In this document: positions 8,325-63,362 of the stretch, one piece after another
How the letters are laid out: the number at the start of each line of letters is the position of its first letter
Numbering within the stretch: position 1 is the stretch's first letter
NCBI GenBank assembly: GCA_964616775.1
Contig: CAZTRN010000002.1
Location: forward strand, 45,367-109,366
Direction of reading: 5' to 3'
DNA from: an uncultured Candidatus Bathyarchaeia archaeon
GTDB lineage: Archaea; Thermoproteota; Bathyarchaeia; Bathyarchaeales; Bathycorpusculaceae
DNA length: 64,000 bases
Notes under the pieces: model-generated
Databases searched by the model: none
What the model was told of the DNA's origin: nothing
What the model saw: only the letters and a program-made list of their open reading frames with translations
Made by a program: the position numbers and the translations under genes

Positions 8325-8401
8325 GCCTCGATAGCTCAGCCCAGCAGAGCGGCTGCCTCGTAAGCAGCAGGCCGCGGGAGCAAAGCCCGCTCGAGGCTCC
8401 A
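8325..8401 (+). tRNA. tRNA-Thr (anticodon CGT) with encoded CCA; non-canonical D-loop/T-loop
   Basis: Manual cloverleaf: acceptor GCCTCGA/TCGAGGC, D stem GCTC/GAGC, anticodon stem GCTGC/GCAGC with loop CTCGTAA, T stem GCGGG/CCCGC, discriminator T then CCA. A TATA-like CATTTAAAAAG lies about 30 nt upstream. The T-loop is AGCAAAG, not TTCRAAT, and the D-loop AGCCCAGCA lacks the GG pair. Confidence 0.75.
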
Positions 8402-11398: not shown

Positions 11399-11476
11399 GG
11401 GGCTGTCGGCTAGCATGGTCCAGGCTTGTAGACTTGGGCTCTATAGACCCCGGTTCAAATCCGGGCAGCCCCACCA
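11399..11476 (+). tRNA. tRNA-Pro (anticodon TGG) with encoded CCA
   Basis: Manual cloverleaf: acceptor GGGGCTG/CAGCCCC, D arm GGCT-AGCATGGTCCA-GGCT, anticodon stem GTAGA/TCTAT with loop CTTGGGC, canonical T arm CCCGG-TTCAAAT-CCGGG, discriminator A plus CCA. An AT-rich TATA-like box lies about 25 nt upstream. Confidence 0.85.
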
Positions 11477-12890: not shown

Positions 12891-14099
12891 TTAAGATGCT
12901 TCGTAAATGCCTGCTCCGATAAGCCAATCCTGATTTACCATAACGACATAGCTGACTTTAGGTTTAACAGTGAAGCCATCTGCAGGGTCCACATACGAAT
13001 AACGCACGAAACCGCCACCAGACTGCGCCGTTTGAATTATTTGCTGAATAAATGCGGTTCCATTCGCATCTGTTGCGTTCCAGCGGTTTGTCCCAATAAG
13101 GTCTGGTTGAAAGGGAAGAGCTAACGTGTTACCTGACATGCCATAGGCAAAGATGTAAAGTTCGCCGTCAACAAACGCACCAGTCTGGTTATTAAATACA
13201 CTTAAAGCCGCTTCTTGACCATTTTGTTGTGCATAATCGTAGGCATCCTGAACGAATTCAACGAGTTCTTCGGGAGAGGTAGTGGTTCCTTGTGTTGGAA
13301 CATAGCGTCTTAGAATTTTTTCATAAGTAGATATGCCAGAGGCGTCTTTTTCTTGTTTAAGAGAATCGATTGCCTGCTGGAAAGAGGCAACTGTTGAGTC
13401 TGGAATGTCTTTGCTGAACGCATAATAGTAGTCGTAATAGCTTAGGGTGAAGGCGTTTTTGAAGGCGTAGTAATTGCCAGTTATCTGCTCGGTGAGGGTT
13501 CGTCCCACTATTTGAGCATAGCACCAAAAGTCTATGTCGCCACTTGAGAGGTTATCTATGATAACCGAGGCATTTGTGAAGTACACCAGTTGGCTCTCAT
13601 ACACGCCTGCATTTGTGAGCTTTGTGATGGCAGCTGAATCTTGGATTACACCAATTCTGTATTCGTTAAGGTCGCTGGCATTTTGGATTGTAACATTGTT
13701 ATCCCATCGGGTGAAGAGGGCGTATGTATCCATAAACAAAGGACCTGCCCACTTGAAAGAATCCTCTCGCACAGGCAACCGTGCGGTTGAAAAAAGAACA
13801 GTGTTCTCGCCAGTTAAAGTTGCTTGGTAGGCTTCTGTCCAAGGAACTAGCTGAATTTGGTCAGGCGATATTTTGCTGCCCATTTTATCAGCAATTTCGG
13901 TTAAGAGGTCAACTGCTATACCTGTCACTGTGCCATTTTCTTGGTAGTTACAGGGAGGAAACTGTTCGGTATAGTAAGTAAAAGTGCTTATGGAGCTTGC
14001 AGGTTGTTGGTCATTAAAAACATACACAGATACTGCTGCTGCCGACAACGAGACTACGAGAACGATAATCAAAAAGTAACAAACGCTACGTCGGAACAT
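12891..14099 (-). CDS. membrane-anchored extracellular sensor-type protein: solute-binding (SBP_bac_3-like) + single Cache (sCache_2-like) domains
   Basis: N-terminal TM. YTEQFPPCNYQENGTVTGIAVDLL is typical of family-3 solute-binding proteins. The C-terminal LVEFVQDAYDYAQQNG...ELYIFAYGMSGNTLALPF...GGGFVRYSYVDP...KVSYV...DWLIGAGIY matches the Cache_2 pattern. Confidence 0.7.
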   Translation of the reverse strand: MFRRSVCYFLIIVLVVSLSAAAVSVYVFNDQQPASSISTFTYYTEQFPPCNYQENGTVTGIAVDLLTEIADKMGSKISPDQIQLVPWTEAYQATLTGENTVLFSTARLPVREDSFKWAGPLFMDTYALFTRWDNNVTIQNASDLNEYRIGVIQDSAAITKLTNAGVYESQLVYFTNASVIIDNLSSGDIDFWCYAQIVGRTLTEQITGNYYAFKNAFTLSYYDYYYAFSKDIPDSTVASFQQAIDSLKQEKDASGISTYEKILRRYVPTQGTTTSPEELVEFVQDAYDYAQQNGQEAALSVFNNQTGAFVDGELYIFAYGMSGNTLALPFQPDLIGTNRWNATDANGTAFIQQIIQTAQSGGGFVRYSYVDPADGFTVKPKVSYVVMVNQDWLIGAGIYEAS

Positions 14100-14123
14100 A
14101 CCAATAAGGTCGAATATTTATAT

Positions 14124-25351: not shown

Positions 25352-26716
25352 GTGCGTGGGATACGGGGGATAACGAAGGGGAAGAAACAGCGAGTTGTTC
25401 GCTGCATCGTACTTTTGATTTTGATGTTTTTTGTTTTGAGCATTTCCGTTGTTTCAGCGACATCTTCGGATGATTGGTCCACGTTTAGGCATAATTTAAC
25501 TCGAACAGGTGCCTCAGACACTCAGGCACCAACAACGGCGGTGGTGCAGATTTGGGCGTTTCCAACTGGAAGCGTAATTTGGTCGTCTCCTTCGGTTGCT
25601 GGGGGCAACGTGTACATCGGTTCAGACGACAGAAATGTGTACTGCTTAGACGCACAAACGGGGCAAAAAATATGGAACTACACGACGCACGGCGCAGCAG
25701 GTTCGCCTCCAACGATTGTAGGCGACTTTGTTTATGTAGGGTCTTATGACGGTAACGTTTACTGTTTGGATGCGGCAACAGGCAACAAAATTTGGAATTA
25801 CACTACTGACGGGTATGTGGAGTCTTCGCCAGCAGTGGTTGGGGACTATGTGTATGTGGGGTCGTATGATGGGAATGTTTATTGTTTAGACGCTGTGAGC
25901 GGAAATAAAGTGTGGAACTTCACAACAGGAAGCTTGGTGGAATCCTCACCCGCAGTGGTGGAAAACTATCTTTATGTCGGTTCTTGTGATGGTAACATTT
26001 ACTGCTTAGACGCTACGACCGGTGAGCGGATTTGGAATTTTACCACCGGCAACGTGGTGGAGTCCTCTCCAGCAGTTGTTGAGGGTTACTTGTATTCGGG
26101 GTCAGAAGATGGAAACGTTTACTGTCTCAACGCATACACAGGCTATAAAATATGGAACTACACCACGTTAGATCGCATATACGCTTCCCCAGCAGTCATG
26201 AATGGCTACGTTTACATTGGATCGTATGACAAGCATGTTTACTGTTTGGACGCTGCCTCAGGAGACCAAATCTGGAATTACACCACACAAGGTTTGGTTT
26301 CATCGTCGCCTGCTGTAGCAAGTGGTTGTGTATATACAGGCTCATACGACGGCAACTTGTACTGTCTTAACGCCACTAATGGCGATCAACTTTGGAGCCA
26401 CCGCATCGGGTCAGCGATTGCATGTTCACCAGCCGTGTCTGACGGCAAAATCTTTGTGGGCGCATGGAACAAGGTGATTTACGCGTTTGCCGCCGAAATG
26501 CCAACACCATCACCCACAACTACCCCCACAGATACTCCAACTGCCACACCGTCAGCAAGCCCATCAACTACAGCTTCAGACCAAACGTCACCTTCGCCTT
26601 CAGCCACGCCGCAGGACACGCTTGAAATTTCAATGAGTAATATGCTTGTGATTGCGGGTGTGGTTGTTGTGATACTTGTTATAGTGGTGTTTTTGGTGAA
26701 GGGCAAAAAAGTGTAA
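25352..26716 (+). CDS. PQQ-like beta-propeller repeat surface protein with PT-rich linker and C-terminal TM anchor
   Basis: Eight near-regular repeats of SSPAVV.(D/G)YVYVGSYDGNVYCLDA.(T/S)G.KIWN(Y/F)TT, then PTPSPTTTPTDTPTATPSASPS and a TM helix. Confidence 0.8.
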   Translation: MRGIRGITKGKKQRVVRCIVLLILMFFVLSISVVSATSSDDWSTFRHNLTRTGASDTQAPTTAVVQIWAFPTGSVIWSSPSVAGGNVYIGSDDRNVYCLDAQTGQKIWNYTTHGAAGSPPTIVGDFVYVGSYDGNVYCLDAATGNKIWNYTTDGYVESSPAVVGDYVYVGSYDGNVYCLDAVSGNKVWNFTTGSLVESSPAVVENYLYVGSCDGNIYCLDATTGERIWNFTTGNVVESSPAVVEGYLYSGSEDGNVYCLNAYTGYKIWNYTTLDRIYASPAVMNGYVYIGSYDKHVYCLDAASGDQIWNYTTQGLVSSSPAVASGCVYTGSYDGNLYCLNATNGDQLWSHRIGSAIACSPAVSDGKIFVGAWNKVIYAFAAEMPTPSPTTTPTDTPTATPSASPSTTASDQTSPSPSATPQDTLEISMSNMLVIAGVVVVILVIVVFLVKGKKV

Positions 26717-37647: not shown

Positions 37648-38982
37648 ATGGAAGACTTCAACGAGATAGTCCTCAAACTTTTGCAAGCCACAAAAGCCCA
37701 CGAACAATACCGCGACCAAGAATGCATAAACATGATTGCCAGCGAAGGCATCAAAAGCCCCGCTGTCCGCGAAATGCAAACACTCTGCAGCGATCTGGAA
37801 GGACGCTACGCCGAAGGCGACAACGACATGCAAGGCCACGTCAAAAGACGCTACTACCAAGGTCAAAAGTACATTTCACCAATTGAGGACTACGCCACCG
37901 ACCTCATGAAGCAACTCTTCAAATGTAACTGGGCAGATTCTCGTCTGGTTAGCGGCACCCACGCCAACCTCGCCACCTTCAAAGGCTTGGCGATGGCAAC
38001 ACACACCTGCAAAATGGTCGTAACTCCCCTAAGTTGTGGCGCCCACATCAGCCACGACTACACTGGCCTCTCAGGCGCAGTGCTGGGTATCGCAAACATC
38101 AACCACGTTTACAACATTAACGAAATGAACATAGACCCCGACCGAAGCGCAGACGTTATCCGCGCAGCCAAACCGGGGATTGTCACTTTTGGCGGCAGCC
38201 TATTTTTGTTCCCGCACCCCATTAAAGAACTTAAAGAGGTCTGCGACGAAGTGGGCGCATTTGTCGCCTACGACGCCAGCCACGTACTGGGCTTAATTGC
38301 GGGCGGTCAATTCCAAGACCCCCTGCGTGAAGGCGCAGACTTCATTTCTGCATCCACGCACAAAACATTCCCGGGCCCTCAAGGCGGCATCATCATGGGC
38401 GACTGCACGCCACGAACAGAAGAAGCCATCAAAAAGATTCAGTACGCCGTTTTCCCCCTAAGCGCCTCAAGCACCCACCTTGGTCGTTTACCTGCACTTG
38501 GGGTGGCAGCGCTTGAAATGAAAGTGTTCGGTCAAGACTTAGCAAAACAAATCGTCAAAAACGCCCAAACAGCCGGCCAATACCTCTACGAAAACGGCGT
38601 CAAGGTGCTTTGCGAACACAAAGGCTTCACCAAGAGCCACCAAATCGCTGTTGACATCCGAGCCTTTGGTGGCGGTAACAAAATCGCCCAAGCCCTCGAA
38701 GACGCCAACATTATCTGCAACAAGAACCTGTTGCCTTATGATGACCAAGGCAGCAAAGGTGACCCCTCAGGCTTGCGCATAGGTTTCCAAGATGTGACAC
38801 GACGCGGTTTTCGCGAAGGTGACATAAAGCACCTTTGTGACCTCATACTTGACGTTGTCAAAGCCAAACGTACCCCCGCGGAAGTCCAAAAAGATGTCAT
38901 TGCCCTCAAGAAAGAGTTTGGCAAAGTTAAGTTCGGGTTCCAAAGCGCCGAAGAAGCCTTAGCTTACGTTGGCAAGGCATAA
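37648..38982 (+). CDS. glyA: serine hydroxymethyltransferase
   Basis: SGTHANL and the PLP-lysine context STHKTFPGPQGG, with archaeal SHMT length. Confidence 0.9.
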   Translation: MEDFNEIVLKLLQATKAHEQYRDQECINMIASEGIKSPAVREMQTLCSDLEGRYAEGDNDMQGHVKRRYYQGQKYISPIEDYATDLMKQLFKCNWADSRLVSGTHANLATFKGLAMATHTCKMVVTPLSCGAHISHDYTGLSGAVLGIANINHVYNINEMNIDPDRSADVIRAAKPGIVTFGGSLFLFPHPIKELKEVCDEVGAFVAYDASHVLGLIAGGQFQDPLREGADFISASTHKTFPGPQGGIIMGDCTPRTEEAIKKIQYAVFPLSASSTHLGRLPALGVAALEMKVFGQDLAKQIVKNAQTAGQYLYENGVKVLCEHKGFTKSHQIAVDIRAFGGGNKIAQALEDANIICNKNLLPYDDQGSKGDPSGLRIGFQDVTRRGFREGDIKHLCDLILDVVKAKRTPAEVQKDVIALKKEFGKVKFGFQSAEEALAYVGKA

Positions 38983-43472: not shown

Positions 43473-45323
43473 TTAAGCCTCCACCTTCGCATTTGCTGTG
43501 TTGTCTAGGTTTAGCCGTTTGAGAGTTTCAGGGGTGGGGACGCCCTGTTTGTCCCATCCACGTTCAGCGTAATAGTCGTCTAAGAGCAAGTCTAATTCAC
43601 GTTCAGTCACCACAGCCCCTTTGACAGGTCCCTCGTCGGGGATGGGTTCATGCAGAACCTTCCACGGCAAGGCATCATCTTGGCGGGTTAAGCCTTCACG
43701 CAGGTTTATGAGGCGAGCTAACGTGTTGATGCGTTCCGCCGCCACAGACATGTACTGGGCGGTTACGTCAGTTCCCGTGACAACGCTGTAGAGTTTTGCT
43801 AGGTCATCTGTGTCTTTTTGGAATAAGCCGCGGGCATTCTTGCAAACAATCAACGAATCCACCAACGCATAAACGTCCTCAAGGGTCTTGACTATGCGTC
43901 CTCGTCCACGCTCAGCTTTCAGACGGTTCACGGAGCCTTTCAAGTCTACTGCGTAGGCGCCACTTCGGTTCTGGTCCGCACCACGAAAAGAAACCGCCGC
44001 AGCCAACGCTGCCGTCTTCAAACACCGCAAATCATACCCCGTAACCTCCAAGCCCTTGATGTGTTGGGCAAGTTGGGGGGCACCTTTGCCGATTTTCTCT
44101 GCCGCTGCCTTAACGCCGTCCGCTAATATGTCGCCGATGCCTTCGCGTTTGCCCATCTCTTCGATAAGCTGTAGCATGGCTTCTGCGTTGCCAAAGTGAG
44201 CGTCTACGCCGCCGAGGTCATCGTGGGTTAGGATGCCTTTTTCGTGGCAATCCATCGCGAAGCCGACGGTTACGCCGACACTTTGGGCATCCATACCGTA
44301 CTGGGTGCAGAGTGCGGCGGCTTTGATGATGGCGTCAGGTCGATTCACGCCCGTGTAGGGTCCAAGTGCCCAGACGGATTCGTATTCGATGCGTGCCATG
44401 GTGCCCTTGTAGGGTCCGTCACGAACTACGGCTTCGTGTTCGCATCGCATGGGGCAGGTGCTGCAGGCGATTATTTTTGCGACGTATTTGTCGTTGAGGA
44501 CTTCGCCGCTGACTTTTTCGGCGTCCTCAAAGTGGGCGTTACGGTAGTTGCGAGTCGGCATACAATACGCCGTGTTATTAATGAGAATGGATTCGACTGT
44601 GCCTAAGCCACGGTACTTTTCGGTGGCGGGTCCCAAGGCACGTTCGCGGTACTCTTTCACCAACGCCATGAACGCTTCGGGGTTTGCGGGAACGATGTCG
44701 TGGGTGCCGCGCACGGCGATGGCTTTGAGGTTTTTAGAGCCCATGACGGCGCCTAAGCCGGTGCGTCCTGCTGCGCGGGTCTTCTCGTTGAGGATGCAGG
44801 CGAGTTTGCTTTGTTTTTCTCCTGCCAACCCGATGGAGGCGACGCGGACATAGTAGTCGCCAAGGTCGTCTTTGATGGCTTCTTCGGTTTCGCTTGGCGA
44901 TTTGCCCCACAAGTGGGCAGCATCAAGAAGCTGGATGGATTCGTTGTCTATCCAGAGGTAAACGGGCTTCTCCGCCTTACCCGAAATAACTATGGCGTCG
45001 TAGCCAGCGCGCTTCAGTTCCGCGCCAAATGCGCCGTGCGAAACTGCCTCGCCCAAGCTGCCAGTGGCAGGAGACTTAGAAATAAACGCGTGACCATTTC
45101 CGCCCGTGGGGAAAACTGTGCCAGCAACGGGACCCAACGCCAAAACCAGCGGGTTCTCTGGGCTCAGAGCGTCGGTACGTGGCGTAGAGTGGTCCATCCA
45201 AAGCCGCATACCCAACCCGATGCCGCCGATGTACTGTTTGGCGGTTTCTTCATCGAGGTCTTCGGTGCTGGTTTTGGATGCGGTCAAGTCGACGTAGAGA
45301 ATTTTGCCTGCGTAACCAAACAA
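43473..45323 (-). CDS. aor: aldehyde:ferredoxin oxidoreductase family (tungstopterin) enzyme
   Basis: MFGYAGKILYVDLT start and AOR_N/AOR_C collinearity (for example GLGAVMGSKNLKAI and CSTCPMRC). Confidence 0.9.
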   Translation of the reverse strand: MFGYAGKILYVDLTASKTSTEDLDEETAKQYIGGIGLGMRLWMDHSTPRTDALSPENPLVLALGPVAGTVFPTGGNGHAFISKSPATGSLGEAVSHGAFGAELKRAGYDAIVISGKAEKPVYLWIDNESIQLLDAAHLWGKSPSETEEAIKDDLGDYYVRVASIGLAGEKQSKLACILNEKTRAAGRTGLGAVMGSKNLKAIAVRGTHDIVPANPEAFMALVKEYRERALGPATEKYRGLGTVESILINNTAYCMPTRNYRNAHFEDAEKVSGEVLNDKYVAKIIACSTCPMRCEHEAVVRDGPYKGTMARIEYESVWALGPYTGVNRPDAIIKAAALCTQYGMDAQSVGVTVGFAMDCHEKGILTHDDLGGVDAHFGNAEAMLQLIEEMGKREGIGDILADGVKAAAEKIGKGAPQLAQHIKGLEVTGYDLRCLKTAALAAAVSFRGADQNRSGAYAVDLKGSVNRLKAERGRGRIVKTLEDVYALVDSLIVCKNARGLFQKDTDDLAKLYSVVTGTDVTAQYMSVAAERINTLARLINLREGLTRQDDALPWKVLHEPIPDEGPVKGAVVTERELDLLLDDYYAERGWDKQGVPTPETLKRLNLDNTANAKVEA

Positions 45324-57626: not shown

Positions 57627-58436
57627 CTATGGTTTTTTGTTGAGCTTTTCGCGAATTGCAGCACTTTTCAAGGTGGCTTGTTCGACGGCGTTCATGATTG
57701 CTTGGCGAACTTGGCTGCTTTCTAAAGCATAGATGGCTTCGATGGTTGTGCCGCCAGGTGTGGTGACCATGTCTCGGATTCGGGCGGGATGCTCGGGCAA
57801 ATCCAAAATCAGCTTGGCAGTGCCTAGCATGTTTTGGGCTGCCGCTTTCTCGGCGATGTTGCGGGGTAATCCAACCTTTAAGCCCGCGTAAATAAGCGCT
57901 TCGGCAATGATGGAGAGGTAGCCAGGTCCACTGCCGCTTAATCCAGTGATGGCATCCATGTATTTTTCGTCCATTTCTTCGCAGCTACCCATCAGGTTCA
58001 GGATGGTTTTGACTTTTTGTTTGTCTTCTTCAGTGACGTTACTATCACAGCAAAACGCTGTGTAGGAAGCTTGAACCAACGCAGCAACGTTAGGCATGAT
58101 ACGTACAACACGGGCGCCAGTGGCATTACGAGTCAAGTAGGACAGAGGCACAGTGGCGGCTGTGGAAATAAGCAGTTTACCTGCCACATCTTTGCTGAGT
58201 TCGTTGAGAACTTTTTCTAGGTCGCCAGGTTTAACTGCGATAAGAACGATGTTGGCTTCTGCAGCGGCTTTATGGTTGTCAGCGGTGGTTGCTGCACCTA
58301 ACGCGGAAAGCTGCGCTAGTTTATCTGCCATGAAGTCGGCTGCTATGATTTTGCCAGGGTATTTGCCTTTGAGGAGGCTTTGGACGATGGCGCCGCCCAT
58401 CATGCCGGTGCCAATAACCGCGATTGTGTCAGCCAT
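57627..58436 (-). CDS. proC: pyrroline-5-carboxylate reductase
   Basis: N-terminal Rossmann IAVIGTGMMGGAI and the C-terminal dimerisation-domain pattern TTPGGTTIEA. Confidence 0.85.
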   Translation of the reverse strand: MADTIAVIGTGMMGGAIVQSLLKGKYPGKIIAADFMADKLAQLSALGAATTADNHKAAAEANIVLIAVKPGDLEKVLNELSKDVAGKLLISTAATVPLSYLTRNATGARVVRIMPNVAALVQASYTAFCCDSNVTEEDKQKVKTILNLMGSCEEMDEKYMDAITGLSGSGPGYLSIIAEALIYAGLKVGLPRNIAEKAAAQNMLGTAKLILDLPEHPARIRDMVTTPGGTTIEAIYALESSQVRQAIMNAVEQATLKSAAIREKLNKKP

Positions 58437-58561
58437 GCTTGGATTCTCCTGTTTGCTTGTACTTTCTGCGGTTTTGGCTCTTAAACTTTTATTTGAACTA
58501 TCTAATCGTTAACCAGCCACTTTGTGGGTTAGTCAAATTTTCCTTACAAAAAGGTTATATT

Positions 58562-59566
58562 ATGAGTAGAACTAACCCAATTTGGCGATATGTGATGAAA
58601 AAAAGTTCACTTGTCGCTCTTTCAATTGTGGCATTTATCATGACTACTAGTTTCTGTAGTTGTTCGAGAGCAAATCCTGTAGGCATTGTAGCATCCACGC
58701 CCAGAATCTCTGTAATTTCTCCGAACGAAGAAGTTTACGGACAAAACAGTGTATCACTATCTTTTAGTGGTCAAGCTGTTACATGGCTGTCAGTAGAATA
58801 TTCCAACGTAAAATACTGGTTAGACGGTAACCTGCGAGGGCAAATCGATAGCCTAGAGGAATCAAAGACTTTTTCCACAGAACTAAGTGGTTTAGCCGAC
58901 GGAGTACATTACATCGAAGTAACCGCAGTTGTTATCGAGTTACAGCGAGCCTACCCTTATGTTGAGGTCCCTTGGGGACCATCACTATTCATAACGTCTG
59001 AAAAAATGAGTTTCACCGTAGACACTACTAAACCCCAAATCACAATTTTACCGCTATCCATTAACTATTTTGAGGACAGAGGCATTGTCAATTTTACTGT
59101 AAATGAACCAGTGGTTTGGGTCAGTTATAGCCTAAACGAAAACAATAATGCCACCATAACAGACACAATTTTAACTCGGTCTTACGGTCAATACAACTAT
59201 CAATTTGCCATAAGTAATCTGACTGAAGGAGCAAACAGCCTGACAGTTTACGCCAAAGATGCAGCAGGAAACGAAGCCTCATCCAAGATAGTCTATTTCA
59301 CGCATTCATCAATATCACCAAGTCTATCGCCTAAGCCGTCTCTGAATCTAACTGAAGTCCCAACGTCGTCTCCTTCGAACTATCTTGATACACAAACTAC
59401 TTCGGCAGAGCAATCTACACCACTGTCCCCTCAAACAGACGAGCAAGCAACAAACGAAGTTAATACAGAAACCTACTTTCTAATAATAGGACTGTTCAGC
59501 ATAATAGCGGTCAGTATCATGATGGGCGCTTCAGTTTACCTAAAAATGAGAAACAATAAAAAATAA
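58562..59566 (+). CDS. cell-surface protein paralog (Ig-like domains, ST-rich linker, C-terminal TM anchor)
   Basis: The start is taken at the ATG at 58562; the ATG at 58595 (MKKSSLVALSIV) is also possible. YWLDGNLRG and ISNLTEGANSLTVYAKDAAGNEASSKIVYF match the 8583-12603 family. The TM ends in RNNKK. Confidence 0.6.
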   Translation: MSRTNPIWRYVMKKSSLVALSIVAFIMTTSFCSCSRANPVGIVASTPRISVISPNEEVYGQNSVSLSFSGQAVTWLSVEYSNVKYWLDGNLRGQIDSLEESKTFSTELSGLADGVHYIEVTAVVIELQRAYPYVEVPWGPSLFITSEKMSFTVDTTKPQITILPLSINYFEDRGIVNFTVNEPVVWVSYSLNENNNATITDTILTRSYGQYNYQFAISNLTEGANSLTVYAKDAAGNEASSKIVYFTHSSISPSLSPKPSLNLTEVPTSSPSNYLDTQTTSAEQSTPLSPQTDEQATNEVNTETYFLIIGLFSIIAVSIMMGASVYLKMRNNKK

Positions 59567-59585: not shown

Positions 59586-60797
59586 TTATTGAGTCAAAGT
59601 CTTCAAGATTTTCTGCATCGTCAAAGCAGGGGCATCAGTTCGGACCCCTCGAGTGTTAAAGTGCGTTGCCACAGCTTGAAAACCAGATTCTTTTAAAGCC
59701 TTGAAAAATAGAGCCCCCGCCGGCGCAGACAAACCCAGTTTTCCACTCAACTTATCCAACACATAATAGGTTGCGGGCGCTTCCGACTCAGCTTTAACTT
59801 GACCCAAAAGCTTGCTGATTTTAACGCAGTTACGAAACGCGAAATGAACATTCTCCTGTTGTATGCGTTCAATGAACGCTGTGTCAAAGATGCTACCTAT
59901 CCACAGTGGACCTGCATAGTCCATTTTTGCGCCGCATTCGGGGCATTTTAAGCCGTTGTCAGGGAAGGGTTTGTGGGCGATTTCGCGGTGTTGACAGGCG
60001 TAGCAGTGCAAGATGTAGCCGACGTTTTTGAGGGATTCATCGGCTTTTTGGGCACCATAGCCTATTTGGGTATAGACGCGGATGTAGTGGTCGCTGCAGT
60101 GGCTAAAGAGCACTTTGATGCCGATGTCGTGTTTAGCTGCGGCGTATGCAACAGCGGAAGTTAAGAGGCGGATGGCAAGTTCGTGGCAGTACTCGGTGCG
60201 CAGAGGTCTGCCGCCGTATTTGCGGACACATGCTTTGGCATGAACCCCGCAAAGCGGTGCCATGTCAGTGGCGGTAACTGCCAACAATCCACGGTTTCGC
60301 AACGCCTGAACCGCAGCATCCAAATGCGGCACGGGGGTCCCAAACGGGTCAATGTCAACAACATCAAAGCGTTGCTTAGGGGCGCTGTGCTCACAAAGCA
60401 GTCGGTTAGCGTCTTTGTGCTCAATTTTCACTTTCACGTCTAACCCGTTAAGCTTAACGTTGTGGGCGGCAAGTTGGGCAGCGTGAAAGTTTATGTCACC
60501 ACTGACTACCTCGGATACGCCGTGAAGCTCAGCAGCAAACCGAAGCCCCCGGATACCCGTTGCCGTCAGGGGTTCACAGATGTTTATTTCGTGGTCAACC
60601 ATATGCTGGTAAGCTTGAAACGCTAAAATCGTCAAGTCCCGATTAAACTCCATGACAGGATTGTAGAATACGGGAGCTTTGCTGGGCGCGTAGTCGGAGG
60701 GGCAGACGCCGTACGCTTTCAGGTCAGGAACAAGAAGCTGAATTTTGCCTTCCGTCACGGTTACGGCGGGAAAGGTGGGTGTGTAAGTTTCTGTCAT
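59586..60797 (-). CDS. trm1: tRNA (guanine26-N2)-dimethyltransferase
   Basis: FYNPVMEFNRDL, DIDPFGTP and the Cys4 insert CYACQHRE...CPECG are typical of archaeal Trm1. Confidence 0.85.
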   Translation of the reverse strand: MTETYTPTFPAVTVTEGKIQLLVPDLKAYGVCPSDYAPSKAPVFYNPVMEFNRDLTILAFQAYQHMVDHEINICEPLTATGIRGLRFAAELHGVSEVVSGDINFHAAQLAAHNVKLNGLDVKVKIEHKDANRLLCEHSAPKQRFDVVDIDPFGTPVPHLDAAVQALRNRGLLAVTATDMAPLCGVHAKACVRKYGGRPLRTEYCHELAIRLLTSAVAYAAAKHDIGIKVLFSHCSDHYIRVYTQIGYGAQKADESLKNVGYILHCYACQHREIAHKPFPDNGLKCPECGAKMDYAGPLWIGSIFDTAFIERIQQENVHFAFRNCVKISKLLGQVKAESEAPATYYVLDKLSGKLGLSAPAGALFFKALKESGFQAVATHFNTRGVRTDAPALTMQKILKTLTQ

Positions 60798-60914
60798 TGA
60801 TTACGCCAGTATGGATGGAAGAAGCAGGTTATTGAGATATTAGAGTTCTGGTTGGGGTTGAGGAAACGATGTGTGTCGAGTAGAAATTGTAGTTTGTTGT
60901 AGTGTACACACAGT

Positions 60915-60929
60915 CACAAGTTTTTATTA
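60915..60929 (+). promoter_or_regulatory. BRE + TATA box (copy 1)
   Basis: CACAAGT|TTTTATTA fits the archaeal BRE (cRnaAnt) and TATA consensus, 27 nt upstream of the conserved block starting at 60956. Confidence 0.5.
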
Positions 60930-60955
60930 GCAATTCCAAGGGTAAGGAGTACTTA

Positions 60956-61099
60956 GTGTCCTGAAGCCATCAAGCGTTGCATCAAGTTTGGCGGATCAGG
61001 ATTTAACAAAACGCGGAAGTGTCCCCTCATTCCCCAGTACAGTGTCCTTTTTCCAGCCGCGTGGAGTTAACAAGCCGAGATCCGCCAAACGATAATTTT
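60956..61099 (+). ncRNA. candidate structured small RNA, paralog 1 (family not recognised)
   Basis: It runs from about 27 nt downstream of the TATA to T4 at 61096-61099. A 12-bp closing helix is 60986-60997/61079-61090, and inner helices are TTAAC/GTTAA and CGCGG/CCGCG. The apical segment 61021-61051 is invariant and C-rich. No start codon or consistent frame is present. Confidence 0.5.
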
Positions 61100-61108
61100 G
61101 GAAATCAG

Positions 61109-61495
61109 CTATAGCAGGAAACGAAGTTCATTAAGCCGTGTTTGAATAACCTCAACCAGTCGAAGCTTCAAATCCGAATCAGAAAGTCCCGAGTCAATAT
61201 GGTTAATGCGATGGACAAGTTCCTTGTCACCAAGCGTTTGTCCAATCCAGTTTTGGAAGTCTTTTCGGTTAAAATGAAAACGTACGGTTTGAGGCTCTGC
61301 CTTCTTCAGTTGTTCACAGAAATTTGGCAGGTTTATGGCGGTTTCTCCCGTATATAGACCAATATCGCTGAAAAAATGAAAACCACGCTCATAGGGAACC
61401 GAAGTCAAAATATTGTTAACAGAGGCGGTTTCAAGCGGTTTTTTGGTAGTCTTAAACAAACACAACTCACCCATAGTAATTCGTGAAAAATCCAT
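61109..61495 (-). CDS. small DUF5752-like protein
   Basis: FHFFSDIGLYTGETAINLPNFCEQL...VRFHFNRKDFQNWIGQTLGDKELV resembles the DUF5752 pattern as I recall it. The start is taken at the ATG at 61495 because the longer ORF-track version runs into the promoter and repeat region. Confidence 0.5.
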   Translation of the reverse strand: MDFSRITMGELCLFKTTKKPLETASVNNILTSVPYERGFHFFSDIGLYTGETAINLPNFCEQLKKAEPQTVRFHFNRKDFQNWIGQTLGDKELVHRINHIDSGLSDSDLKLRLVEVIQTRLNELRFLL

Positions 61496-61582
61496 TAAAT
61501 CCGTTTGTGGTTGTGGGAAAACTGTTACATCAAGGAATACAAAGATTATTTTGAGACTGATTTGTTGCTGTAAACAAGCAGT

Positions 61583-61597
61583 CACAAATTTATATTA
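61583..61597 (+). promoter_or_regulatory. BRE + TATA box (copy 2)
   Basis: CACAAAT|TTATATTA lies 25 nt upstream of the conserved block starting at 61622. Confidence 0.5.
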
Positions 61598-61621
61598 ATT
61601 TTTTTAGGGTAACGTGTATTT

Positions 61622-61768
61622 GTGTCCTGAAGCCATCAAGCGTTGCATCAAGTTTGGCGGATCAGATGTTGGCGACAACGCAGATCATTTGTCCCCTCAT
61701 TCCCCAGTACAGTGTCCTTTTCCACTCTGCGCCCAACCAACAATCGAGATCCGCCAAACGATAATTTT
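61622..61768 (+). ncRNA. candidate structured small RNA, paralog 2 (family not recognised)
   Basis: Same architecture as copy 1. The closing helix is 61652-61663/61748-61759, and inner helices are TGTTGG/CCAACA and CGCAGA/TCTGCG. The invariant apical segment is 61691-61721, with T4 at 61765-61768. Confidence 0.5.
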
Positions 61769-61940
61769 GGCTAAACCGAAACTGAGTTGATAAAGCAAGC
61801 TCGAAGGTTATTTTACCAAAAGGGCGCACAAACAAGAAACGAAAAAGCAGATTCTCAGAACCCCCTAAAGGGGCTAAACCGTGGGCGGCTTGTGGTATAG
61901 GCTTAAATAATTTCTACAGGCTACTTGTTTGGGAAACAGC

Positions 61941-63362
61941 ATGACCAAGGAACCCAGCAACCTTCGACTCTTTAACACACTGACTCGTCAGAAGGACAAG
62001 TTTGTTCCCATTGAAGCAGGCAAAGTTGGGCTGTACACATGTGGACCAACCGTTTATGATTACGCGCACATAGGCAACTTTCGCGCCTTCATTTTTGAAG
62101 ACCTGCTGAAACGTTGGCTGGAGTACCGAGGCTTCAAAGTTAATCACGTCATGAACCTCACCGACGTGGATGATAAAACCATCAAAGGCAGCCAAAAACA
62201 GCAAAAACCTCTACGCCAATACACCAACTTCTATGCAAACGCCTTTTTTGAAGATATAAAAATTCTCAACATCCAACCTGCCACCGTTTATCCTCGAGCC
62301 ACTGACCACATTCCCGAAATGGTGAAACTCGTTCAAACCCTAATTCAGAAGGGTTACGCGTACAAAGGTGAAGACGGCAGCATCTATTTTGCCATCAACA
62401 AGTTTCCAGCGTATGGTCAACTTAGCCACATAAAAGTCGCGGAACTTAAAGCGGGTGCCCGCGTCAGCCAAGACGAATACGCCAAAGAAGAAGCTCAAGA
62501 CTTCGCGCTCTGGAAAGCCTACACACCAGAAGATGGCGACGTATTCTGGGAGACTGAACTGGGCAAAGGACGTCCCGGCTGGCACATCGAATGCAGTGCC
62601 ATGAGTATGCAGTATCTTGGCAAGACATTTGACATTCACTGCGGCGGCGTCGACAACATGTTTCCCCATCATGAGAACGAGATTGCTCAAAGTGAAGCCG
62701 CCACAGACAAGCCATTTGTTCACTACTGGATGCACAACGAACACCTGCAGGTAGAAGGCAAAAAGATGGCTAAGCGGTTGGGCAACTTTTACACTCTCCG
62801 CGACCTGCTGGCAAAAGGCTTGGACCCATTGGCGATTCGTTACTTGCTTATGAGCACGCATTATCGGCAGCAATTCAACTTCACCTTTGAGGGGCTGGAA
62901 GCTGCAAAGGGTGCCATTGAACGGCTAGCAAATCTGCAGCGGCGACTTCAAGATGCTAACGGCACAGCAAGATGTGAGAACCTGCCAAGCATTGTTGCAA
63001 GCGTGCAGAGACGTTTCGATGCAGCCATGGACGACGACTTAGACATCAGCACTGCGTTAGCATCGATGTTTGATTTTGTGCGGGAAATAAACAACCTGCT
63101 AGATGCAAATGCGTTAACCAAGCAAGACGCCTCAAAAGTCTCCGCAGTTATAGCCGAATTTGACAGCGTTTTAGGTGTGATTCCTAAGCCGCAAGAAGAA
63201 GCCTTGCCAAAAGAAGCGGAAGAGCTCATCCAGAAACGTCAAGAAGCCCGCAAAGCCAAAGACTGGAAAACCGCTGATGCTGTCCGCGACCAGTTGAAGG
63301 CGATGGGAATTGTAGTGGAGGACACCGCGCAGGGCATAAGGTGGAAACAAGAAAAAACCTAA
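61941..63362 (+). CDS. cysS: cysteine--tRNA ligase
   Basis: The HIGH region is CGPTVYDYAHIGNFR, with zinc ligand contexts and the KMSKS variant KMAKRLGN. The ATG at 61941 is preferred over the TTG at 61929. Confidence 0.9.
   Translation: MTKEPSNLRLFNTLTRQKDKFVPIEAGKVGLYTCGPTVYDYAHIGNFRAFIFEDLLKRWLEYRGFKVNHVMNLTDVDDKTIKGSQKQQKPLRQYTNFYANAFFEDIKILNIQPATVYPRATDHIPEMVKLVQTLIQKGYAYKGEDGSIYFAINKFPAYGQLSHIKVAELKAGARVSQDEYAKEEAQDFALWKAYTPEDGDVFWETELGKGRPGWHIECSAMSMQYLGKTFDIHCGGVDNMFPHHENEIAQSEAATDKPFVHYWMHNEHLQVEGKKMAKRLGNFYTLRDLLAKGLDPLAIRYLLMSTHYRQQFNFTFEGLEAAKGAIERLANLQRRLQDANGTARCENLPSIVASVQRRFDAAMDDDLDISTALASMFDFVREINNLLDANALTKQDASKVSAVIAEFDSVLGVIPKPQEEALPKEAEELIQKRQEARKAKDWKTADAVRDQLKAMGIVVEDTAQGIRWKQEKT

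Follow-up and report, generated by a model that had tools for sequence, protein, structure and literature searches.

Trans-acting small RNAs with C-rich motifs are known from Bacillales (RsaE/RoxS, Rfam RF01820) and from Methanosarcina (sRNA41), and, in enterobacteria, the Hfq-dependent small RNAs RybB and OmrA/B carry a seed at their 5′ terminus. To our knowledge, very few structured non-coding RNAs specific to archaea have been described. In sediments and soils, few uncultured archaeal groups are as abundant as the Bathyarchaeia. Here, we analyze a stretch of 64,000 nt from one of them (contig CAZTRN010000002.1 of assembly GCA_964616775.1; hereafter "the window," with positions counted from its first letter), in which two direct copies of an RNA gene occur on the + strand (60950–61104 and 61616–61773), both with the same long irregular hairpin fold. 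The two copies very probably represent a new family of structured small RNA genes, present here as two old paralogues with predicted transcripts of ∼150 nt. A stand-alone gene for a structured small RNA is of a known kind; the family is new with respect to Rfam 15 and to the literature searched.

A covariance model built from the two window copies (R1), the type of check that an earlier note on this DNA had called for, matches with 150 bits a homologue in a 1.49-Mb contig of a relative with a 72% identical Trm1 protein. A 20-mer of the loop, scanned over one genome per species (185,579 species), occurs in nine species-representative genomes, all of them metagenome-assembled genomes (MAGs) of Bathyarchaeia, with one match in each. 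A probe from the 5′ block matches 27 metagenome contigs, and synteny-guided retrieval added the loci L043 and L051/L052. In total, 36 distinct sequences (34 in addition to those of the window) score 72–167 bits with the improved model R2, and all those with a name are Bathyarchaeia MAGs. Neither probe has a match in 2.9 million viral contigs. As far as sampled, the family is confined, by these sequence matches, to one clade of Bathyarchaeia, uncultured archaea of soils and sediments. The earlier note did not recognize the fold and this holds: no Rfam 15 family matches over the RNA at E ≤ 10 in the window or at six other homologue-bearing loci, and full-text literature searches on non-coding RNAs of Bathyarchaeota/Bathyarchaeia returned no description of such an RNA. 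ARAGORN over the window finds nothing at the RNA, only tRNAThr at 8325 and tRNAPro at 11399. These two genes (CGU anticodon, 8325–8401, and UGG anticodon, 11399–11476, both on the + strand) are the only gathering-level matches of Rfam or ARAGORN in the window.

The general architecture of the family comprises a 5′ arm of 28–30 nt, a closing helix P1 of 12 bp, a 2-bp GG/CC step, the inner helices H2 (5–6 bp) and H3 (4–6 bp), and an apical loop of 40–55 nt, which contains a U-tract and a near-invariant core rich in C/U (GUCCCCUCAUUCCCCAGUA). The tail is short and variable and ends in U4–5. In the 36-sequence alignment, which was fitted to the model and thereby favors the structure, 97.2% of the cells are standard pairs, a value that falls to 30–49% when the partners are slid by one to three columns. 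Both sides change in 13 of the 24 pairs, including all six pairs of H2, and none of 500 column shuffles attains the observed value in any of five measures. RNAalifold recovered the same helices on its own and adds the GG/CC step. The alignment contains 65 G-U or U-G cells and seven A-C or C-A cells; the folded strand is therefore the + strand, on which the promoter and the T-run also lie. The coordinates are collected in Table 1.

Table 1. Features of the two RNA copies and of their neighbors in the window
Feature	Position	Strand	Sequence or partner	Basis or remark
Conserved upstream promoter element, copy 1	60884..60919	+	AAATTGTAGTTTGTTGTAGTGT-N-ACAGTCACAA	Imperfect dyad/direct repeat abutting the BRE
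BRE/TATA-like promoter, copy 1	60915..60929	+	CACAAGT TTTTATTA	Read directly
RNA copy 1, canonical form	60956..61099	+		Predicted 5′ end 60953–60956, 3′ end in T run 61096–61099
Invariant, apparently single-stranded 5′ arm, copy 1	60956..60985	+	GUGUCCUGAAGCCAUCAAGCGUUGCAUCAA	Column identity; no covariation-supported pairing
P1 5′ strand, copy 1	60986..60997	+	Pairs with 61079–61090	Minimum free energy fold; 95–99% paired, compensatory changes
GG/CC step, copy 1	G60999-G61000	+	C61075-C61076	RNAalifold
H2 5′ strand, copy 1	61003..61007	+	Pairs with 61066–61070	
H3 5′ strand, copy 1	61012..61016	+	CGCGG, pairs with 61057–61061 CCGCG	
Apical loop, copy 1	61017..61056	+	Conserved C/U-rich core UGUCCCCUCAUUCCCCAGUA and U-tract	
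P1 3′ strand, copy 1	61079..61090	+	GATCCGCCAAAC	Minimum free energy fold, covariation
3′ tail ending in T4, copy 1	61091..61099	+		Putative archaeal terminator/3′ oligo-U
OrfY-like (DUF5752) gene, 121 aa	61109..61474	−		Between the RNA copies; Pfam PF19027, E = 2.4e-7
Upstream element and BRE/TATA, copy 2	61561..61597	+	TTTGTTGCTGT..CAGTCACAAAT TTATATTA	Type common to the second L051 copy
RNA copy 2, diverged paralogue	61622..61768	+		R1 198.7 bits, R2 159.9 bits
P1, copy 2	61652..61663	+	Pairs with 61748–61759	
H2, copy 2	61667..61672	+	Pairs with 61737–61742	
H3, copy 2	61679..61684	+	Pairs with 61726–61731	
Apical loop, copy 2	61685..61725	+		
T4, copy 2	61765..61768	+		
Trm1 gene	59586..60797	−		Upstream of copy 1; PF02005, E = 4.5e-116
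CysRS gene (cysS)	61941..63362	+		Downstream of copy 2

The duplicated unit in direct orientation had been pointed out in the earlier note; rereading the sequence and a direct-repeat search both recover it, with the two copies 666–670 bp apart. The shared blocks are 60953–60999/61619–61665 (47 nt, 98% identity), 61020–61051/61690–61721 (32 nt, 100% identity), and 61076–61101/61745–61770 (26 nt, 100% identity), with a further upstream block at 60893–60929/61561–61597 (37 nt, 78% identity). The long shared blocks occur exactly twice each in the window, against an expectation of zero by chance. The 12-bp closing helix and the T4 ends are present in both copies as described before, and the inner helices, TTAAC/GTTAA with CGCGG/CCGCG in copy 1 and TGTTGG/CCAACA with CGCAGA/TCTGCG in copy 2, appear in both minimum free energy (MFE) folds (z about −2.1 and −2.2). 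The two segments between the invariant blocks, on the other hand, had been said to share no sequence, and this has to be corrected. MAFFT aligns them in register as the same two helices, with additional changes in the loop. In H3, CGCGG/CCGCG corresponds to CGCAG(A)/(U)CUGCG, with one G-C to A-U exchange; in H2, UUAAC/GUUAA corresponds to (UG)UUGG/CCAA(CA), with two A-U to G-C exchanges. Three compensatory pairs in all thus separate H2/H3 of copy 1 from those of copy 2. The idea of two tandem copies also needs qualification: both copies are real, but they are not equivalent variants. Copy 1 (R1 192.9 bits, R2 165 bits) is canonical, its GUUAAC-type and CGCGG/CCGCG stems being those of most family members, and copy 2 is a diverged paralogue. 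With the covariation across 36 sequences and the stem pairing kept in the homologues, the earlier view that complementarity between these segments marks a functional structured RNA is borne out.

Two unpaired segments stand out by their constancy. The 5′ arm (GUGUCCUGAAGCCAUCAAACGUUGCAUC) is near-invariant, with a mean column identity of 0.93 in the homologues found via the loop probe, and the loop core has a mean column identity of 0.88 in those found via the 5′ block only. The most divergent members, L043 and L015, keep the first 10 nt GU[G/U]UCCUGAA; L043 keeps the first ∼25 nt of the arm, while L015 diverges after ∼16 nt and the next 12 are missing. Variation is found in the helices, the junctions, the distal loop, and the 3′ tail. 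Neither RNAalifold nor an all-against-all column scan gives covariation-supported pairing for the 5′ arm or the loop core. In the search for extra helices or pseudoknots, the column scan returned only noise from single outlier sequences and RNAalifold nothing within the loop. The hairpin that the MFE fold places in the 5′ arm shows no covariation, is not maintained in L043, and is missing through a deletion in L015; a Loop-E type pairing (AGUA/GAA) of the loop with the 5′ arm is inconsistent across the homologues. Both were set aside. These segments are near-constant across lineages with Trm1 proteins 65–73% identical, and the 5′ arm and the loop core are best read as exposed recognition surfaces.

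Each copy was also thought to have its own promoter, consisting of a transcription factor B recognition element (BRE) and a TATA box, and these are found at CACAAGTTTTTATTA (60915–60929) and CACAAATTTATATTA (61583–61597), with the motifs CACAAGT and CACAAAT, which we take to fit the archaeal BRE. The invariant block starts close downstream, with GTGTCC beginning 26 nt (copy 1) and 24 nt (copy 2) after these elements. The same arrangement, scored in every homologue with enough upstream DNA, is present in all of them, in the order (A)TTGTAG-TTTGTTGYWGTG, 4–6 nt, ACAGTCACAA(R)TT, a TTATAW-type box, ∼24–27 nt, and GUGUCC. The upstream element contains the dyad halves TTGTTGTAGTGT..ACAGTCACAA, and in L006 the dyad is perfect (TTGTTGTA-N7-TACAACAA). 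It occupies 60884–60919 and 61561–61587 in the window and the same place in L006–L043 and L051; that of copy 1 is near-identical in the orthologous L051 copy, and the element stands ahead of essentially all homologues. By its symmetry, it looks like a putative transcription-factor operator. The element is not found ahead of other genes or of tRNAs in the window. A possible sharing of the promoter motif elsewhere in the window was dismissed, since the region at 26646 is coding sequence and the promoters of the two tRNAs differ, so that the window offers no evidence for a regulon.

At the other end, a T4–5 run follows P1 after 8–12 variable nt in nearly every homologue, with only T3 in L030. The oligo-T end of the earlier note therefore stands as a sequence feature of the family, while T4 is only a plausible archaeal terminator. 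No hairpin terminators were found in a scan for bacterial-type signals, and σ70-like matches are irrelevant for an archaeon. The tail of the window copies, AAUUUUGG, fits an Sm-site-like RAU4GR motif; across the family only the U-run is kept, so a conserved Sm site was not retained as an interpretation.

The gene between the two copies encodes an OrfY-like protein, and the history of the duplication can be read from its recurrence. The gene lies between two RNA copies in three lineages: the window, L035 (about 13770–14100), and L051 (769–1137). In L051/L052, the protein is 68% identical to that of the window and the module is again a canonical RNA, a convergent OrfY-like gene, and a variant RNA. 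A four-way alignment pairs the copies one by one. Copy 1 matches the first L051 copy in the promoter AAATTGTAGTTTGTTGTAGTGTA..ACAGTCACAAGTTTTTATTAGCAA and in its canonical stems, and copy 2 matches the second one in TTTGTTGCTGT..AGTCACAAATT.ATATTA, GGCGACAACGCAGA, UCAUUUGUCCCC, and CCACUCUGCGCCCA. The RNA at L051:472–629 is the ortholog of copy 2, with CGCAGA/UCUGCG and the flanking loop sequences in common. Because of this copy-by-copy orthology, the duplication is older than the split of the window and L051 lineages, and, on the sequence comparison, both old paralogues have been retained since. In L035, two copies also surround the OrfY-like gene, with the variant stems in the other position.

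The window copies are nevertheless alike, and the L051 paralogues unlike, at the G in CAUCAAGCG, at ACAGUGUCC at the loop end, at an A-U pair in P1, and over the whole 3′ tail; these states of the window copies differ from the rest of the family too. Since they are private to the window copies, the identity of the blocks in the window lineage probably owes part to short-tract gene conversion that left the stems untouched. The identical blocks reflect, as judged from the alignments, very strong purifying selection. Conversion of only one strand of a diverged helix would break it, and for this reason the mosaic of perfect blocks and diverged stems may persist.

The OrfY-like protein matches by sequence PDB entry 4cso ("OrfY protein, transcription factor," from Thermoproteus tenax) with E = 2.3e-6, and its AlphaFold model (mean predicted local confidence, pLDDT, 89.9) matches only 4cso in the PDB (TM-score 0.55, prob 1.00, E = 0.038), a fold match that yields no functional clue. 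Literature searches on DUF5752 returned nothing relevant, and the trehalose papers that came up do not discuss OrfY. Of the 26 closer homologues of the protein, about 24 are on contigs below 3.6 kb (0.7–3.5 kb). Short contigs are expected if flanking repeats break the assemblies, and the RNA/OrfY-like/RNA module may thus be common. Distant homologues (45–50% identity) have no RNA nearby. A hint from the repeats D6/D7 that the flanking open reading frames (ORFs) could be paralogues of each other did not hold: the one upstream encodes Trm1 and the one in the middle a DUF5752 protein.

For the function, we put first, tentatively and with a confidence that stays well short of even, a base-pairing riboregulator acting in trans. 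The helices would serve as a scaffold, and the RNA would act through its unpaired 5′ end and its C/U-rich loop. The 5′ seed would be GU(G/U)UCCUGAA, as in chaperone-dependent small RNAs with a 5′ seed, and the candidate target-pairing segments would be GUGUCCUGAA and the loop. C-rich unpaired motifs are present in the family alignment, and five motifs of UCC(U/C) type in the unpaired regions could pair with purine-rich sites of the AGGA/GGAG type. In the host genome, GGAGG, AGGTG, and GGTGA are enriched upstream of starts, so that purine-rich target sites exist. The internal and 3′ U-tracts could bind an Sm-like protein, and expression may be controlled via the conserved promoter dyad.

Several observations weigh against such a regulator. 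The loop and the 5′ arm, as RNAduplex queries over the 64 kb of the window, did no better than shuffled queries. A 12-mer, TTTGATGGCTTC, the complement of GAAGCCAUCAAA in the RNA, occurs at 44871–44882 (+) and 38422–38433 (−), with the gene on the other strand in both cases; both matches being antisense to genes, the mRNAs carry the same sense as the RNA (coding for ..EEAIK..), and the matches are probably coding bias and not targets. By reading of the sequence, the loop has only ∼4 bp of complementarity to the consensus GGAGG Shine-Dalgarno. The 28 invariant contiguous nt of the arm exceed a typical seed and suit an interface with a protein or ribonucleoprotein (RNP) no less well. For a terminator, T4 is short. 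Finally, three relatives with Trm1 66–73% identical have no copy within 10 kb of Trm1, and hence the RNA is either not universal in the class or relocated.

The RNA could also be the subunit or scaffold of an RNP, or an RNA that sequesters a protein. This is possible, if doubtful, and almost as likely as the riboregulator. The arm and the loop would bind a conserved protein, the stems and junctions of the paralogues would set the partner, and the OrfY-like protein would be a candidate partner or regulator. The constancy of nearly every position in the two unpaired segments across the lineages compared above speaks for it, as do the repeated GUCC/UUCC motifs in these regions, the OrfY-like gene between RNA copies in three lineages, the short contigs of its closer homologues (as if flanked by repeats), and the duplex scans, which gave no mRNA target in the window. 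However, the RNA has neither a K-turn nor an ACA box nor any other known motif for protein binding; the adjacent OrfY-like gene is missing in most genomes with the RNA, its distant homologues occur without the RNA nearby, and the RNA is absent near Trm1 in some relatives. The promoter dyad suggests conditional and not housekeeping expression.

More speculatively, and with a smaller chance than either of these proposals, the RNA would be the core of an archaeal RNP or regulatory circuit not known before in this Bathyarchaeia clade. Its arm and loop would engage the ribosome, the translation-initiation apparatus, or the OrfY-like partner, and its inner helices would encode the specificity for the partner. 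Such a paralogue-specific choice of partner, if true, would explain why the stems are kept distinct while the rest is identical.

The genomic context bears on the remaining possibilities. At a typical locus, the RNA is the lone + strand gene among − strand genes, and its immediate neighbors vary. On its upstream side lies Trm1, a MazE/PIN pair, or an ABC transporter, and on its downstream side one finds ArsB/CitMHS and KARI, or CysRS (cysteinyl-tRNA synthetase). Most genomes with the RNA have a single copy at the syntenic site, and no gene is constantly adjacent. In many relatives (L006 8776–9385; L043 9296–9911; cluster 1, 14 loci), the MazE/PIN toxin–antitoxin pair separates Trm1 from the RNA; the pair is absent from the window. 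On the other side of Trm1, an ORF at 58424–59566 (+) of up to 380 aa (334 aa in L001) shows a weak Big_13 domain (bacterial Ig-like) and, at its C terminus, a hydrophobic segment; its product is, by these features, probably a surface protein.

A cis-acting leader of the downstream gene (riboswitch- or T-box-like), for example of cysS after copy 2, would agree with the position of the RNA ahead of cysS, in the same orientation, in the window (170-nt gap), L031, and L043. But ArsB/CitMHS or KARI follows on the opposite strand at 10 or more other loci, where conservation of the RNA is just as high, copy 1 is followed by a convergent gene, and nearly every copy ends in a T-run. In addition, cysS has its own TATA-like box (TTAAATAA) ∼30 nt before the ATG, and no Rfam riboswitch or leader matches at the loci searched. 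As most downstream genes are convergent, and of different families, the pattern is not that of a riboswitch or leader, and we hold a cis-acting role to be very improbable.

An atypical guide RNA, of the archaeal H/ACA or C/D box type, appears just as improbable. The long hairpin with internal loops, an AUA in the 3′ single-stranded tail of the window copies, and one CUGA near the 5′ end recall such RNAs. However, there is no RUGAUGA and no second CUGA (60956–61101 on the + strand contains neither UGAUGA nor UGAUG, and likewise the family alignment), and no K-turn or K-loop, and the upper part lacks a tandem G-A motif. Conservation does not extend to the AUA, the tails after P1 being variable (GAUAAUUUU, CCCUAAUUUU, CUUCAGUUUU); the internal loops differ from one homologue to another in size and sequence and show no pattern resembling a pocket, and no Rfam snoRNA or small RNA family matches over the RNA.

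A mobile or selfish repeat (a miniature inverted-repeat transposable element, MITE, or an element resembling short interspersed nuclear elements), or else an artefact of assembly or duplication, could be suspected from the close spacing of the two copies and from contigs of L001, L002, and L004 that end exactly within the element. These contigs from independent short-read assemblies (Logan, JGI), with identical or 85% identical Trm1, stop inside the RNA 5′ block or the promoter (L001:1–188, L002:1–188, L004:1–219); the local tandem pair of RNAs accounts for these breaks. The dispersed copies that the earlier note had linked to a MITE are not seen, with one probe match per genome in nine species representatives. 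The chromosomal neighborhood is conserved, which argues against a MITE, the repeat search gives no terminal inverted repeats or target-site duplications at the unit, and, as noted above, the viral contigs lack both probes. There is hardly any probability left for this explanation.

A gene for a small peptide, such as ...SPHSPV... from the loop or the 58-aa product of a GTG-initiated ORF over copy 2 (61614–61790, +), has equally little to commend it and had already been argued against in the earlier note: ATG or GTG does stand right before GUCCCC in many homologues, but that start is AAG or AGG in several others, indels of 1 nt and other non-triplet lengths break the frame in the conserved core, copy 1 has no ORF of at least 40 aa, the ORF of copy 2 is not conserved in the homologues, and the substitutions fit paired helices, with G-U tolerated and compensatory changes.

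For an orphan RNA, the evidence is unusually clean, with a conserved promoter and end, strong covariation in the helices, and a tRNA-like constancy of ∼50 unpaired nt. The two old paralogues, which differ only in their helices and flank a small OrfY-like gene, amount to a natural experiment. R2 and the 36-sequence alignment give a defined target for metatranscriptome mapping, target prediction, and in vitro binding, and the RNA pair accounts for the breaks in short-read assemblies at this locus in these genomes.

How does this RNA compare with known systems? With RsaE/RoxS and sRNA41 it shares the organization as a small RNA gene that stands alone, has a promoter of its own that looks regulated, and ends in a U-run, and also several unpaired C-rich motifs (CCCC, UCCC) that are unusually conserved across genera. 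In contrast, there is no similarity in sequence or by covariance model (Rfam, E ≤ 10), the Bathyarchaeia RNA is one long irregular hairpin with a 40- to 55-nt apical loop and a 30-nt 5′ arm, and the scans of the window show no G-rich target, with weak complementarity to the local GGAGG. In RybB and OmrA/B, too, the layout is modular and conservation is highest at the extreme, single-stranded 5′ end, which precedes a structured body, a U-rich stretch inside the RNA, and a 3′ oligo-U. Here, however, the host is an archaeon and the putative chaperone would be an Sm-like archaeal protein (SmAP/Lsm), the arm is ∼28 nt long versus 8–16 nt, and the terminator scan gives no hairpin abutting the U-run. 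Y RNAs and bacterial Y-like RNAs likewise have a long stem around a large loop rich in pyrimidines and a 3′ oligo-U, and a genome often carries several paralogues of them. In the Bathyarchaeia RNA, 30 nt precede the closing stem, so that the 5′ end is outside of it, and no conserved bulged-C Ro-binding helix, Rfam Y_RNA match, or neighboring TROVE/Ro protein is found. Archaeal H/ACA guide RNAs also consist of one long hairpin, interrupted by internal loops, and a short tail at the 3′ end; the Bathyarchaeia RNA differs from them by the lack of a K-turn or K-loop, of a conserved ANA box, and of the pocket geometry, and, with ∼150 nt including its 5′ arm, it is twice their usual size.

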